Below the pieces are notes generated by a model, which ran no database searches, was not told the DNA's origin, and saw only the letters and a list, made by a program, of their open reading frames with translations. Below, in pieces: positions 1-5,647 of a stretch of 5,647 nt of DNA. Both the position numbers and the translations under genes were made by a program. The stretch's first letter is position 1, and each line of letters starts with the position of its first letter. Origin of the DNA: a virus (lineage: Duplodnaviria; Heunggongvirae; Uroviricota; Caudoviricetes); the IMG/VR virus record IMGVR_UViG_2540341028_000011, positions 1 through 5,647 of that record. One strand, given 5' to 3'.

Positions 1-2
1 AT

Positions 3-188
3 CTCTGCTCTCATTGCCGTAAAACATGGCAACTACAGTTCACTTACACCGCCTCTCAGCCCGGTACGCACCAGAAAATCATTGATATGGCCATGAATGG
101 CGTCGGATGTCGCGCCAGTGCACGCATTATGGGCGTTGGCCTCAACACGGTTTTACGTCACTTAAAAAACTCAGGCCGCAGTCGGTAA
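3..188 (+). CDS. insA: IS1 InsA (5'-partial, C-terminal 61 codons, stop TAA 186-188)
   Basis: Frame 3 translates to [61 protein letters not shown], which matches the InsA C-terminus. It is not in the ORF track because the start lies upstream of the window. Confidence 0.85.
162..170 (+). promoter_or_regulatory. IS1 programmed -1 ribosomal frameshift site (A6C slippery run)
   Basis: TTAAAAAAC lies just before the insA stop, at the position where IS1 makes the InsAB' fusion. Confidence 0.7.
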
Positions 189-202
189 CCTCGCGCATAT
201 AA

Positions 203-610
203 CCGGGCAGTGATGTGATTGTCTGCGCTGAAATGGACGAACAGTGGGGCTACGTCGGTGCTAAATCACGTCAGCGCTGGCTGTTTTACGCGTATGACAG
301 GATACGGAGGACGGTTGTGGCGCACGTCTTCGGTGAACGCACTCTGGCCACACTGGAGCGTCTTCTGAGCCTGCTGTCGGCCTTTGAGGTCGTGGTATGG
401 ATGACGGATGGCTGGCCGCTGTATGAATCACGCCTGAAGGGAAAGCTGCACGTTATCAGCAAGCGTTACACTCAGCGCATTGAGCGACATAATCTGAATC
501 TGAGACAACATCTGGCAAGGCTGGGACGGAAGTCACTGTCGTTCTCAAAATCGGTGGAGCTGCATGACAAGGTCATCGGGCATTATCTGAACATAAAACA
601 CTATCAGTAA
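203..610 (+). CDS. insB: IS1 insB reading frame (catalytic part of the InsAB' transposase); cut off from insA by a TAA at 200-202
   Basis: Frame 2 [29 protein letters not shown]...[15 protein letters not shown] (track 215..610) matches IS1 InsB. The frame is normally entered by a -1 frameshift at the A6C site, but here it hits TAA 11 codons after that site. Confidence 0.85.
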
Positions 611-611
611 G

Positions 612-1643
612 TTGGAGTCATTACCCGCCGACTGCCTGGAATTTATCTGGTCGTTACCCGAAAATTCTGTTGACCTGATAGTCACGGACCCGCCGTACTT
701 TAAAGTGAAGCCTGAGGGCTGGGATAACCAGTGGAAGGGCGACGATGATTACCTGAAGTGGCTGGAGCAGTGTCTGGCGCAGTTCTGGCGGGTGCTGAAA
801 CCTGCCGGAAGTCTTTACCTGTTCTGTGGTCATCGCCTGGCATCTGATATCGAAATCATGATGCGTGAACGCTTCAGTGTGCTGAACCATATTATCTGAG
901 CGAAGCCGTCCGGACGCTGGAACGGATGCAACAAGGAAAGCCTGCGGGCGTATTTCCCCGCCACAGAGCGCATTCTGTTCGCGGAACATTATCAGGGGCC
1001 GTACCGCCCGAAAGATGATGGCTATGAGGCGAAGGGCAGTGCACTGAAACAGCATGTGATGGCCCCGCTGATTTCTTACTTTCGTGATGCGCGAGCTGCC
1101 CTGGGGATAACGGCAAAACAGATTGCAGATGCCACAGGAAAGAAAAACATGGTGTCGCACTGGTTCAGTGCCAGTCAGTGGCAGTTGCCGAATGAAAGCG
1201 ATTATCTGAAATTACAGGCGCTGTTTGCCCGGGTGGCAGAAGAGAAGCATCGGCGTGGTGAACTGGAAAAGCTCCACCACCAGCTGGTGGATACGTATAC
1301 CTCACTGAACCGGCAGTATGCGGAGCTGCTGAGTGAATATAAACATCTGCGGCGGTATTTTGGCGTGACGGTGCAGGTGCCGTATACCGATGTGTGGACG
1401 CATAAACCGGTGCAGTTCTATCCCGGGAAACATCCGTGCGAAAAACCGGCAGAAATGCTGCAGCAGATAATCAGCGCTAGCAGTCGTCCGGGTGACCTGA
1501 TTGCAGATTTTTTCATGGGGTCGGGTTCGACAGTGAAAGCGGCACTGGCGCTCGGGCGTCGTGCAATTGGCGTTGAGCTGGAGACTGAACGTTTTGAGCA
1601 GACGGTTCGGGAAGTACAGGATTTAGTCAGCCAGAACGGATGA
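612..1643 (+). pseudogene. Phage-type beta-class DNA (probably N6-adenine) methyltransferase, disrupted: 5' end replaced by the IS1 terminus and an in-frame TGA at 897-899
   Basis: Track ORFs 612..899 and 1056..1643 are in the same frame (frame 3), and the only stop between them is TGA 897-899. Motif IV DLIVTDPPY is near the N-terminus and the AdoMet-binding motif DFFMGSGST near the C-terminus, which is the beta-class order. The first five codons (TTG-GAG-TCA-TTA-CCC) are IS1 terminal sequence, so the native start is lost. Confidence 0.8.
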
Positions 1644-1645
1644 TA

Positions 1646-1674
1646 TTGAAGAATTAATTACGCGTCGTTATTAT
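1646..1674 (+). promoter_or_regulatory. Sigma70-type promoter for the tRNA cluster (-35 TTGAAG 1646-1651, 17 bp spacer, -10 TATTAT 1669-1674, GC-rich discriminator GCGGC)
   Basis: The hexamers and spacing put the predicted start about 1681-1683, just before the first tRNA at 1684. A GC-rich discriminator is typical of stable-RNA promoters. Confidence 0.55.
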
Positions 1675-1683
1675 GCGGCTCCC

Positions 1684-1759
1684 GGCCCTTTAGCTCAGTG
1701 GTGAGAGCGAGCGACTCATAATCGCCAGGTCGCTGGTTCAAATCCAGCAAGGGCCACCA
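1684..1759 (+). tRNA. ileZ: tRNA-Ile2-like, anticodon CAU (lysidine type; elongator Met not strictly excluded), 76 nt with encoded CCA
   Basis: Cloverleaf reads directly: acceptor GGCCCTT/AAGGGCC, anticodon loop CTCATAA, T-loop GGTTCAAATCC, 3' ACCA. It closely resembles E. coli ileX from memory, including C4 and C5 in the acceptor stem. Confidence 0.85.
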
Positions 1760-1766
1760 TCACATA

Positions 1767-1843
1767 CCGCCATTAGCTCATCAGGAAAGAGCGCCAGCCT
1801 TCGAAGCTGGCTGCGCGGGGTTCAAGTCCCCGATGGCGGTCCA
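1767..1843 (+). tRNA. argN: tRNA-Arg, anticodon UCG (decodes CGA, rare in E. coli), 77 nt with encoded CCA
   Basis: Acceptor CCGCCAT/ATGGCGG, anticodon stem CCAGC/GCTGG with loop CTTCGAA, T-arm CGGGG-TTCAAGT-CCCCG, then discriminator plus CCA. Confidence 0.85.
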
Positions 1844-1856
1844 TTATCTGCATCAT

Positions 1857-1933
1857 GCGTTGTTAGCTCAGCCGGACAGAGCAATTGCCTTCTAAGCAAT
1901 CGGTCACTGGTTCGAATCCAGTACAACGCGCCA
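1857..1933 (+). tRNA. argO: tRNA-Arg, anticodon UCU (argU-like, decodes AGA/AGG), 77 nt with encoded CCA
   Basis: Acceptor GCGTTGT/ACAACGC, anticodon stem ATTGC/GCAAT with loop CTTCTAA, T-arm ACTGG-TTCGAAT-CCAGT, 3' GCCA. It resembles E. coli argU from memory. Confidence 0.9.
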
Positions 1934-1948
1934 CACTTATTTTCCCTG

Positions 1949-1973
1949 GCTCGCTTTTGCGGGCTTTTTTTTT
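1949..1973 (+). terminator. Rho-independent terminator closing the tRNA cluster
   Basis: Hairpin GCTCGC-TTTT-GCGGGC (6 bp with one G-U pair) followed directly by a run of nine T. Confidence 0.6.
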
Positions 1974-2170
1974 AAATGTCTCACAATTCAGACGGTTGAC
2001 TGTTGTCTGGTTTGCGGGGAGTTTGTTAAAAGAAACTGGCATGGTGAATCCCCCTGTGCGGAGGGGCAATCAGCGAGTAGGTATATGGGATAATCGCGGA
2101 TTCAGGTGCTGGTACTGAATTCACCGGGAGGCACCCGGCACCATGCAATGGCACATAGCGCCACTCTCCA

Positions 2171-2197
2171 GCCCCTCTCCGGAGGGGCTTTCTTGTG
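2171..2197 (+). terminator. Rho-independent terminator-like hairpin (plus strand)
   Basis: Perfect 7 bp stem GCCCCTC/GAGGGGC with tetraloop TCCG, followed by TTTCTTGTG. Confidence 0.55.
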
Positions 2198-2200
2198 GGC

Positions 2201-2229
2201 AAAAAAAGCCCGCGCTGGGAGACGCGGGC
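2201..2229 (-). terminator. Rho-independent terminator on the minus strand, convergent with the one at 2171-2197
   Basis: The plus strand reads A7-GCCCGCG-CTGGGAGA-CGCGGGC, so the minus strand reads a 7 bp GC stem followed by TTTTTTT. Confidence 0.55.
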
Positions 2230-2422
2230 GGCAAGGAATAAACAATAAAACGTGAAGTAATATTTCAGCTGGCGAATAATACCCCATAGTAGTCACTCTG
2301 CGCAACTGCGCGGTCTTTTTCGAATTGCGGGCTGTCGTCTCTCTTCTGCCATTGTCCTGTAACTTCCGGACTTCAGCCCGCTCCTCATTTTACTCACAAT
2401 ATTATCCCGGCCGGGAGGATTC

Positions 2423-3502
2423 ATGGCTTTTAAACACTATGATGTTGTCAGGGCGGCGTCGCCGTCAGATCTTGCGGAAAAGCTGACACATAAACTGAAA
2501 GAGGGCTGGCAGCCGTTTGGTAGTCCGGTGGCCATAACCCCTTATACTCTGATGCAGGCGATTGCAGCAGAAGGTGCAGTAATCAGCGCCACCAGCGACC
2601 CGGAGTATTACTTTGTTGTGGTTCTGGCAGGGCAGTCAAACGGCATGTCGTATGGTGAAGGCCTTCCGCTGCCGGGGACATATGACCGTCCGGACCCGCG
2701 TATTAAGCAACTGGCGCGTCGCAGTACGGTGACACCGGGCGGTGCAGCATGCAAATATAACGACATCATTCTGGCGGACCATTGTCTGCATGATGTGCAG
2801 GACATGAGCCGTCTTAACCATCCGAAAGCGGACCTGTCAAAGGGGCAGTACGGAACCGTGGGGCAGGGGCTGCATATCGCCAAAAAACTGCTGCCGTTTA
2901 TACCGGCGAATGCGGGCATTCTGCTGGTTCCGTGCTGTCGTGGTGGTTCAGCGTTCACCACCGGAGCTGATGGCACATACAGTGACGCGAGTGGTGCCTC
3001 GGAGAATTCAACCCGCTGGGGTGTGGACAAGCCGCTGTATAAGGACCTTATCGGTCGAACAAAAGCGGCACTGGAGAAGAACCCGAAAAATGTGCTGTTT
3101 GCCGTGGTGTGGATGCAGGGGGAATTTGATTTTGGCGGTACGCCGGCAAATCATGCCGCACAGTTTGGTGCGCTGGTTGATAAATTCCGTGCAGACCTGG
3201 CGGATATGGCAGGCCAGTGCGTCGGTGGCTCTGCTGGCGGTGTTCCCTGGATATGCGGGGACACGACGTATTTCTGGAAGCAGAAGAACGAATCCACGTA
3301 CCAGACGGTGTACGGCAGCTATAAAAATAAAACGGAAAAGAATATCCATTTCGTACCGTTCATGACCGATGAGAACGGGGTGAATGTGCCGACGAACAAA
3401 CCGGAAGAAGACCCGGACATTCGGGGTATCGGTTATTACGGTTCGAAATGGCGTGACAGCTCAGCCACCTGGACGTCACAGGACAGGGCGAGCCATTTCT
3501 AG
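2423..3502 (+). CDS. nanS-p: Prophage NanS-p-like sialate 9-O-acetylesterase (N-terminal DUF1737-like segment plus SGNH/SASA esterase domain), 3'-truncated by IS2
   Basis: 359 aa ORF with GGAGG 6 nt upstream of the ATG. The GQSNGMSYGEGLPLP block and the following sequence resemble E. coli NanS/YjhS and the prophage esterase found downstream of stx, from memory. The stop TAG 3500-3502 is the first three bases of the IS2 left end. Confidence 0.8.
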   Translation: MAFKHYDVVRAASPSDLAEKLTHKLKEGWQPFGSPVAITPYTLMQAIAAEGAVISATSDPEYYFVVVLAGQSNGMSYGEGLPLPGTYDRPDPRIKQLARRSTVTPGGAACKYNDIILADHCLHDVQDMSRLNHPKADLSKGQYGTVGQGLHIAKKLLPFIPANAGILLVPCCRGGSAFTTGADGTYSDASGASENSTRWGVDKPLYKDLIGRTKAALEKNPKNVLFAVVWMQGEFDFGGTPANHAAQFGALVDKFRADLADMAGQCVGGSAGGVPWICGDTTYFWKQKNESTYQTVYGSYKNKTEKNIHFVPFMTDENGVNVPTNKPEEDPDIRGIGYYGSKWRDSSATWTSQDRASHF

Positions 3503-3837
3503 ACTGGCCCCCTGAATCTCCAGACAACCAGTATCACTTAAATAAGTGATAGTCTTAATACTAGTTTTTAGACTAGTCATTGGAGTACAGATGATTGATG
3601 TCTTAGGGCCGGAGAAACGCAGACGGCGTACCACACAGGAAAAGATCGCAATTGTTCAGCAGAGCTTTGAACCGGGGATGACGGTCTCCCTCGTTGCCCG
3701 GCAACATGGTGTAGCAGCCAGCCAGTTATTTCTCTGGCGTAAGCAATACCAGGAAGGAAGTCTTACTGCTGTGGCCGCCGGAGAACAGGTTGTTCCTGCC
3801 TCTGAACTTGCTGCCGCCATGAAGCAGATTAAAGAAC
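3500..3837 (+). mobile_element. IS2 left-end fragment (left terminal repeat TAGACTGGCCCCCTGAATCTCCAGACAACC...), interrupted by IS629
   Basis: The terminal sequence and the start of the InsC reading frame match IS2 from memory. The element breaks off at about 3837, where the IS629 terminal repeat begins. Confidence 0.85.
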
Positions 3838-3839
3838 TG
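3591..3839 (+). pseudogene. insC: IS2 orfA (InsC) N-terminal fragment, about 83 codons, truncated by the IS629 insertion
   Basis: [56 protein letters not shown]...MKQIKEL follows a GGAG ribosome-binding site. After KEL the frame runs into the IS629 repeat, giving NRPGNPGD*. The track start at 3546 is probably an upstream over-extension. Confidence 0.85.
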
Positions 3840-3891
3840 AACCGCCCCGGGAATCCTGGAGACTAAACTCCCTGAGAAAGAGGTAAACAGG

Positions 3892-4218
3892 ATGACTAAA
3901 AATACTCGTTTTTCCCCCGAAGTCCGTCAGAGGGCGATTCGTATGGTTCTGGAAAGTCAGGGCGAATATGACTCACAGTGGGCGGCAATTTGTTCCATTG
4001 CCCCAAAGATTGGCTGTATACCGGAGACTCTGCGTGTCTGGGTACGCCAGCATGAGCGGGATACCGGAGGCGGTGATGGCGGGCTCACCACCGCTGAACG
4101 TCAGCGTCTGAAAGAGCTGGAACGTGAAAATCGTGAACTGCGCCGCAGTAACGATATCCTTCGCCAGGCTTCCGCTTATTTTGCGAAGGCGGAGTTCGAC
4201 CGCCTCTGGAAAAAGTGA
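3892..4218 (+). CDS. IS629 OrfA (IS3-family helix-turn-helix / leucine-zipper transposase subunit)
   Basis: 108 aa [33 protein letters not shown]...[36 protein letters not shown] with AAGAGG ribosome-binding site. An A-rich run GGAAAAAG sits at the orfA end, where IS3-family frameshifting occurs. Confidence 0.9.
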
Positions 4219-4826
4219 TGCCACTGCTGGATAAGCTGCGTAAGCTGTACGGGGTCGGACCGGTATGCAGTGAACTACATATTGCCCCGTCAACGTATTA
4301 CCACTGTCAGCAACAGCGACATCATCCTGATAAACGCAGTGCCCGTGCGCAGCGCGATGACTGGCTGAAGAAAGAGATACTGCGCGTATACGATGGGAAT
4401 CATCAGGTATACGGTGTGCGTAAAGTCTGGCGTCAGTTGTTACGGGAAGGTATCAGAGTGGCCAGATGCACTGTGGCACGTCTCATGGCGGTTATGGGAC
4501 TTGCCGGTGTTCTCCGGGGTAAAAAGGTCCGTACGACCATCAGCCGGAAAGCCGTTGCCGCAGGCGACCGCGTAAACCGTCAGTTCGTGGCAGAACGACC
4601 TGACCAGCTGTGGGTGGCTGATTTTACTTACGTCAGCACATGGCAGGGCTTCGTCTATGTGGCGTTCATTATTGATGTGTTTGCCGGATACATCGTGGGG
4701 TGGCGGGTCTCATCGTCCATGGAAACGACATTCGTGCTGGATGCTCTGGAGCAGGCGTTATGGGCCCGTCGACCGTCCGGCACGGTCCATCACAGTGATA
4801 AAGGTTCTCAGTATGTATCGCTGGCC
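4215..4826 (+). pseudogene. IS629 OrfB (DDE transposase catalytic domain), 3'-truncated with the third catalytic residue region missing
   Basis: Frame -1 relative to orfA. Contains WVADFTYV and HHSDKGSQY, the first two acidic-residue motifs of an IS3-family DD(35)E domain. The ORF then reads 4 codons into the next element (VSVN*), so the E-containing region is absent. Confidence 0.85.
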
Positions 4827-4912
4827 GTAAGCGTAAACTGACCGCCGTATGTAGCCATTAAGCCTGTATTGGTAACGTAGGTGCCCACCTTTTCAACTAG
4901 TGGACACCTGTT

Positions 4913-5332
4913 ATGGAACAGAAAGCATTATCTGCAGAACCCCGCAGATCATTTTCAAATGAGTTTAAACTTCAAATGGTTAAACTGGCTTCACAACCAG
5001 GAGCCTCTGTTGCCCGTATTGCCCGGGAACACGATATCAATGATAACCTGCTGTTCAAATGGCTCAGGCTCTGGCAGAACGAAGGGCGCATATCGCGGCG
5101 TCTTCCGGTAACAACCTCTTCTGACACTGGCGTTGAATTATTACCTGTGGAGATAACGCCGGATGAGCCGAAAGAACCTGTGGCTGCTCTTACTTCGTCT
5201 TTATCTACTCAGACTACTGTTAGTGCCAGCTCCTGCAAGGTGGAGTTCCGTCACGGTAACATGACGCTGGAAAATCCTTCACCAGAGCTGCTCACAGTGT
5301 TGATCCGTGAACTGACCGGGAGGGGACGATGA
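4913..5332 (+). CDS. tnpA: IS66-family accessory protein TnpA (helix-turn-helix)
   Basis: 139 aa ORF MEQKALSAEPRRSFSNEFKLQMVKLASQPGASVARIAREHDINDNLLFKWLRLWQNEG..., with the stop overlapping the next start. Confidence 0.8.
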   Translation: MEQKALSAEPRRSFSNEFKLQMVKLASQPGASVARIAREHDINDNLLFKWLRLWQNEGRISRRLPVTTSSDTGVELLPVEITPDEPKEPVAALTSSLSTQTTVSASSCKVEFRHGNMTLENPSPELLTVLIRELTGRGR

Positions 5333-5647
5333 TCTCACTCCCGTCAGGCACCCGCATCTGGCTCGTTGCTGGGATAACCGATATGCGTAAGTCTTTCAAC
5401 GGGCTGGGTGAACAGGTACAGCATGTGCTGAATGATAATCCCTTCTCCGGTCACCTGTTCATCTTCCGTGGCCGACGGGGTGACATGATTAAAATCCTGT
5501 GGGCTGATGCTGATGGTCTGTGCCTGTTCACCAGACGCCTGGAGGAAGGCCAGTTTATCTGGCCTGCTGTGCGTGACGGCAAGGTATCCATTACCCGCTC
5601 GCAACTGGCAATGCTCCTCGATAAGCTGGACTGGCGTCAGCCAAAAA
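5329..5647 (+). CDS. tnpB: IS66-family TnpB (Orf2), 5' part; open to the window edge, so absent from the ORF track
   Basis: Frame 1 from ATG 5329 translates without a stop to MISLPSGTRIWLVAGITDMRKSFNGLGEQVQHVLNDNPFSGHLFIFRGRRGDMIKILWADADGLCLFTRRLEEGQFIWPAVRDGKVSITRSQLAMLLDKLDWRQPK, recognisable as IS66 TnpB. Confidence 0.85.
   Translation, partial: MISLPSGTRIWLVAGITDMRKSFNGLGEQVQHVLNDNPFSGHLFIFRGRRGDMIKILWADADGLCLFTRRLEEGQFIWPAVRDGKVSITRSQLAMLLDKLDWRQPK

Follow-up and report, generated by a model that had tools for sequence, protein, structure and literature searches.

A single C-to-T transition closes the transposase frame of a structurally complete IS1 element of the IS1F type, which lies at a prophage deletion junction in Shigella flexneri serotype 6. 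We are confident in this reading, in which the transition (C343T, IS1 numbering) blocks production of the element's own transposase and leaves the copy as a possible substrate for transposase supplied in trans. The frame is closed ahead of the DDE catalytic domain; insA is intact, as are the A6C slippery motif and the two inverted repeats. From this layout, the element would have lost its autonomy and would rely on transposase made elsewhere.

The window analyzed here (5,647 bp) is the whole of draft contig AERO01000124.1 from assembly GCA_000193935.2, given as S. flexneri CDC 796-83 in a published genome list (PMC5429569). The contig starts within IS1, hence the window has only nucleotides 144–768 of the element (positions 1–625, plus strand; window position n corresponds to IS1 nucleotide n + 143), and 624 of these 625 nucleotides are identical to E. 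coli IS1 copies. A complete 768-bp copy with both inverted repeats is found at the orthologous locus, L003 7436–8203 (chromosome CP055124.1). Window positions 1–188 (plus strand) hold the 3' two-thirds of insA, that is, InsA codons about 30–91 and the stop codon TAA at 186–188; this part is intact and the same as in the reference isoform, and the InsA protein sequence is identical. The right end of the element, ...GTTGGAGTCATTACC, closes at 625, and the right inverted repeat (603–625, plus strand; reverse complement GGTAATGACTCCAACTTACTGAT...) equals that of K-12 IS1F. Membership of the IS1 family is clear from four features: a length of about 768 bp with imperfect terminal inverted repeats GGTAATG... 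and ...CATTACC (seen in the L003 copy), an insA product with a zinc ribbon and a helix-turn-helix (HTH), an A6C motif overlapped by a –1 insB' frame whose eleven residues past the slip are those of IS1A and IS1F, and a DDE_Tnp_IS1 catalytic domain encoded in that frame.

Direct reading of TTA AAA AAC at 162–170 places the A6C motif AAAAAAC, the site of programmed –1 frameshifting, at 164–170 (plus strand; IS1 nucleotides 307–313), and the motif is unaltered. The fusion reads ...RHLK up to the slip, continues for eleven residues in the –1 frame, and then meets TAA at 200–202 (plus strand; IS1 nucleotides 343–345). This stop is codon 97 of an InsAB' fusion of 232 codons, so the unbroken 232-codon frame that an autonomous IS1 possesses is absent from this copy. 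On conceptual translation, the same –1 frame is open again from 203 (203–610, plus strand) to the TAA at 608–610, and the list of open reading frames (ORFs) has within it an ORF of 131 residues that starts at GTG 215 and ends at 610. The 96 residues ahead of the stop carry only the InsA domains, PF03811 Zn_ribbon_InsA and PF12759 HTH_Tnp_IS1 (E-values of 3.3e-20 and 4e-28, respectively, for the full-length InsA product). The residues after the stop (203–607) contain PF03400 DDE_Tnp_IS1 in its entirety (E-value 6.6e-75, profile positions 1–131 of 131), severed from the DNA-binding part of InsA. A first-pass annotation of this DNA had held that the fusion frame closes 11 codons past the shift with loss of the whole catalytic domain, and that the insB frame is open over 203–610; both statements are borne out, and its coordinates were all correct on direct reading.

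As for RNA structure past the slip site, a hairpin is predicted at 174–229. Position 200 falls in the loop of this hairpin, which folds at –17.9 kcal/mol with C and T alike, hence the substitution is predicted to leave this local structure unaffected. A longer fold (164–300) does differ by allele, both in structure and in energy (–41.6 kcal/mol with T versus –43.1 kcal/mol with C). Any such effect would be irrelevant once the frame is closed.

The origin of the stop is simple. Compared with common IS1 copies, window positions 1–625 differ solely at position 200. These reference copies encode WP_094106546.1, bear the annotation 'IS1 family transposase, programmed frameshift', and occur in thousands of E. 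coli genomes; in 3,762 E. coli records the best match is a copy with an identity of at least 99%. Over its full length, the L003 copy is identical to the widespread IS1F-type isoform at 767 of 768 positions, both inverted repeats included, to K-12 IS1F at 762 of 768, and to IS1A at 699 of 768 (91%). Codon 97 is CAG in IS1A, whereas the copy widespread in E. coli and Shigella has CAA, as does K-12 IS1F. Since the nearest isoform has CAA, one C-to-T transition made the stop (C343T, window position 200, InsAB' Q97*). The first-pass annotation had proposed two substitutions on the basis of CAG at this codon; only one is needed because CAG is the IS1A codon and IS1F-type elements have CAA. The same annotation would have been overturned by active reference isoforms with a stop at this codon, and we found no such stop at codon 97 of IS1A, K-12 IS1F, or the widespread copy.

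The TAA allele, contained in GGTAACCTCGCGCATATAACCGGGCAGTGATGTGATTGTC, is rare outside its locus. Across 5,426 complete E. coli genomes, with approximately 70,000 IS1 places, a 71-mer centered on the stop was never matched exactly, and its top identity in any complete E. coli record was 98.6%, that is, one mismatch. Exact-pattern scans for TAA or TAG at this codon were empty in the GTDB species representatives and in the JGI metagenomes, scans that are uninformative on copies within the same genome, and GTDB folds Shigella into E. coli. The phage collection gave no match at 99% or above. Exact protein identity of the 131-residue ORF (215–610) was also tried as a means of finding TAA copies. 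It proved uninformative because gene callers report the identical ORF for normal CAA or CAG copies, and the codon was indeed CAA or CAG in all nine of the nine readable places. Among plasmids, one of the best 5,000 matching records has TAA, namely NZ_CP026767.1, a virulence plasmid from S. boydii 59-248, and the allele is thus not strictly confined to one locus.

This plasmid copy bears on the least improbable alternative, that TAA-bearing copies form a non-autonomous sub-lineage of IS1 which spreads between loci in the S. boydii/S. flexneri 6 clade by trans-mobilization or by gene conversion among IS1 copies, so that the studied element would not be a one-off dead copy. In its favor, the plasmid holds a second TAA-bearing IS1 (L025 3694–4461) at a locus unrelated to that of the prophage copy. 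Relative to orthologous virulence-plasmid copies, this element shows three differences, all of them C-to-T changes within IS1 (C343T, C11T, and C140T), and none in 793 nucleotides of flanking DNA, a pattern that fits import from another IS1 copy. C11T falls in the left inverted repeat, and C140T replaces Arg with Cys in the zinc-ribbon region of InsA. The orthologous plasmid insertion, however, has CAA in plasmids of S. dysenteriae, S. boydii, EIEC, and S. flexneri 6, where the IS1 copies are identical or near-identical to the common isoform. Because the site is shared with CAA-bearing plasmids, the insertion is old and the plasmid TAA arose in place, not by a new insertion; we therefore rejected transposition of the defective copy as its source. 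Gene conversion, recurrent mutation, clustered deamination, or a polishing artefact in a repeat are possible origins of the plasmid allele. Recurrent mutation, or a polishing artefact of a repeat-rich long-read assembly, would explain it as well as spread does. Moreover, TAA was confined to that one record among the best 5,000 plasmid matches, and no TAA copy was seen at a new insertion site. On balance, we consider a spreading sub-lineage improbable, and we favor simple point inactivation of the prophage copy.

What such a copy could still do can be outlined from its reading frames. Ribosomes that remain in frame would still yield normal InsA, the repressor that binds the ends of the element. 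Those that slip –1 at the A6C motif would yield a 96-residue protein made of InsA residues 1–85 and the eleven residues from the –1 frame, which would keep the zinc ribbon and the HTH and be without the DDE domain. With the DDE domain missing from both proteins, the copy would be unable to supply its own transposase; with both inverted repeats intact, it is a possible substrate for InsAB' from other IS1 copies in the genome. The element would thus do no more than provide InsA and a truncated InsA-like protein, and serve passively as a substrate when transposase comes from outside. The first-pass annotation had judged the copy to be non-autonomous and movable only with transposase from outside; the first part stands on a frame that is closed before the DDE domain, while its movement in trans is something that we infer. 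Judging from studies of InsAB' in K-12, rescue of this copy in Shigella by InsAB' in trans may be possible and would probably be inefficient, as expected from the cis preference and the instability of InsAB' described in two reports (PMC12428005, PMC12903888).

Recoding could in principle restore partial function, either by readthrough of the ochre codon, perhaps at a low level, or by termination at 200–202 followed by reinitiation at GTG 215, which would give a separate DDE polypeptide acting with the InsA-like fragment. GTG 215 lies only 13 nucleotides past the stop and opens the 131-residue ORF that spans the whole DDE domain. It is not, however, preceded by a good Shine-Dalgarno sequence, and the resulting DDE fragment would be without the zinc ribbon and HTH that are needed for end binding. 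A bypass by some other single frameshift was sought and none was found: frame 0 stops at 186–188, the –1 frame at 200–202, and the +1 frame at 211–213, hence every single shift runs into a stop. We know of no split IS1 transposase. Partial function through recoding is accordingly a highly improbable outcome. Put together, the more novel interpretations (either a two-piece IS1 transposase made of an InsA-like fragment and a free DDE polypeptide, or a non-autonomous TAA lineage spreading in the S. boydii/S. flexneri 6 clade) carry very little weight with us compared with simple inactivation of the frame.

The stop is a real allele of this locus. Window positions 1–4826 are 100% identical to L003 (CP055124.1), L004 (JWSL02000004.1), and L005 (CP026811.1), and TAA is present at the orthologous locus in these three and in an IMG/VR contig (L029). 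Counting the window, five assemblies carry TAA at the locus, two of which are complete chromosomes. CP055124.1 and CP026811.1 belong to the S. flexneri serotype 6 strains FDAARGOS_714 and 64-5500 (PMC9455713). The TAA allele is thus fixed at this locus in the serotype 6 S. flexneri lineage. The first-pass annotation had raised an error at the stop as a way in which its reading might fail; a sequencing, assembly, or consensus error is conceivable because the draft contig starts within a high-copy repeat, and contig ends located in repeats can blend reads from several copies, but it has practically no chance of being correct, given that four more assemblies (two of them complete chromosomes, and three of the four matching the window at 100% over 4,826 nucleotides) have the same base and that reads mixed in from other copies would favor the majority CAA over TAA. 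With five concordant assemblies, we take error to be excluded.

The element does not sit at a simple insertion site. A simple insertion would be bordered by a target-site duplication of 8–9 bp, and here the 9-bp flank on the left, ...CGTCGAGCG, differs from that on the right, CGCCGACTG.... The right flank belongs to an N6/N4 DNA methyltransferase pseudogene of the prophage (626–1643, plus strand), which IS1 abuts at codon 15, and it aligns from nucleotide 42 (codon 15) of an intact methylase homologue in L007. The left flank lies approximately 40 nucleotides from an xis-like gene that adjoins the integrase gene. In L003 7380–8243 (orthologous to window 1–665), the xis-like/integrase end of the prophage is thus joined to codon 15 of a methylase from the late region. 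The absence of a duplication, together with the joining of distant prophage parts, implies that an IS1-associated deletion or IS1–IS1 recombination removed the early region. IS-driven genome decay has been described for Shigella, and the junction fits this description (PMC7373316). The methylase gene is a double pseudogene: its first 14 codons are gone at the IS1 boundary, and a TGG codon has become TGA at 897–899, giving HII*AKPS in the window versus HIIWAKPS in the intact L007 homologue. Gene callers split it into ORFs of 95 and 194 residues. The host context is a lambdoid prophage remnant.

Several other features of the window were noted. Three prophage tRNA genes (Met-CAT, Arg-TCG, and Arg-TCT) are clustered at 1684–1933, between the methylase and an esterase gene. 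In Stx phages, the ileZ-argN-argO cluster presumably has this position ahead of stx, whereas the window is devoid of stx genes. A suppressor tRNA encoded here was considered and rejected, given the anticodons of these three genes. Just upstream of the esterase gene, positions 2010–2200 gave a full-length Rfam match (139 bits) to the gammaproteobacterial sRNA STnc100. The esterase gene itself (2423–3502) is an intact ORF of 359 residues with DUF1737 and SASA domains that resembles the NanS-p type of sialate O-acetylesterase. The public collection has the identical 359-residue protein in 38 of its blocks, among them a contig from a Hadza/Nepal gut metagenome (L007) with an undeleted prophage. 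The remainder of the window (3546–5647) is IS debris, with an IS66-family orfA fragment at 3591–3866, and an IS1203/IS629-like IS3 element that has an ALIL frameshift pseudoknot (Rfam, 4173–4289) and breaks off at 4826. Positions 4827–5647 match IS66-family (ISEc8-like) orfA/orfB at L003 20929–20109 with 99.6% identity, in an orientation opposite to that of complete serotype 6 genomes. Either strain CDC 796-83 underwent a rearrangement here, or the contig is a chimera whose parts were joined at a repeat.

IS1 is the most abundant insertion sequence of Shigella; in reference genomes, 46–73% of all IS insertions are IS1 (PMC7373316). Such an expansion is expected to leave point-inactivated copies behind, and the present one matters very little. 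In annotation, it is best entered as a pseudogene and its internal stop recorded, and C343T offers a handy single-base marker by which one particular IS1 copy of serotype 6 S. flexneri can be told apart. Were the allele multi-copy, it could trace trans-mobilization or gene conversion among IS1 copies.

Lastly, we compared the element with known IS1 systems. The widespread IS1F-type IS1, which is also present on Shigella virulence plasmids, shares its length of 768 bp, inverted repeats, insA, A6C motif, and insB' frame; the widespread element has CAA (Gln97) and an open InsAB' frame, whereas the copy studied here has TAA. IS1A and IS1E, the K-12 'consensus' elements, have the same 768-bp layout, the same A6C position, and the same InsA and InsAB' lengths, and differ from the studied copy in overall sequence (699 of 768, 91%), in having CAG at the codon, and in having G versus A at position 4 of the left inverted repeat. 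Engineered miniIS1 cassettes consist of IS1 ends without a transposase gene and, like the studied copy, contain no source of transposase in cis. They move only when InsAB' is given in trans, according to one study (PMC12903888). Unlike miniIS1, the studied copy is natural and full length, and its intact insA predicts that it would still express the inhibitor InsA.

The closest parallel is K-12 IS1F (L024 449–1146), located between fecI and yjhU, which shares both of its inverted repeats, letter for letter, with the studied copy. It is also inactivated by a nonsense mutation, and PGAP flags it as 'programmed frameshift; internal stop'. The stop in K-12 IS1F is at another codon, W163 (IS1 nucleotide 542, G-to-A), within the DDE domain, and its InsA has a His-to-Pro change in the zinc ribbon and a Thr-to-Lys change, whereas the studied copy has a single change at codon 97. 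In two reports, K-12 IS1F is described as essentially immobile at native transposase levels and as moving only when InsAB' is overproduced; under overproduction in trans, it was the most readily mobilized of four non-consensus K-12 IS1 elements, and the weak native action in trans was put down to InsAB' being unstable and acting preferentially in cis (PMC12428005, PMC12903888). Both reports deal with IS1F immobility and discuss amino-acid substitutions; the W163 stop is not mentioned in the passages searched (PMC12428005, PMC12903888). K-12 IS1F is a direct precedent for a point-inactivated IS1 copy, and the studied element is one more ordinary case, either dead or dependent on other copies, of a mobile element that is very common.
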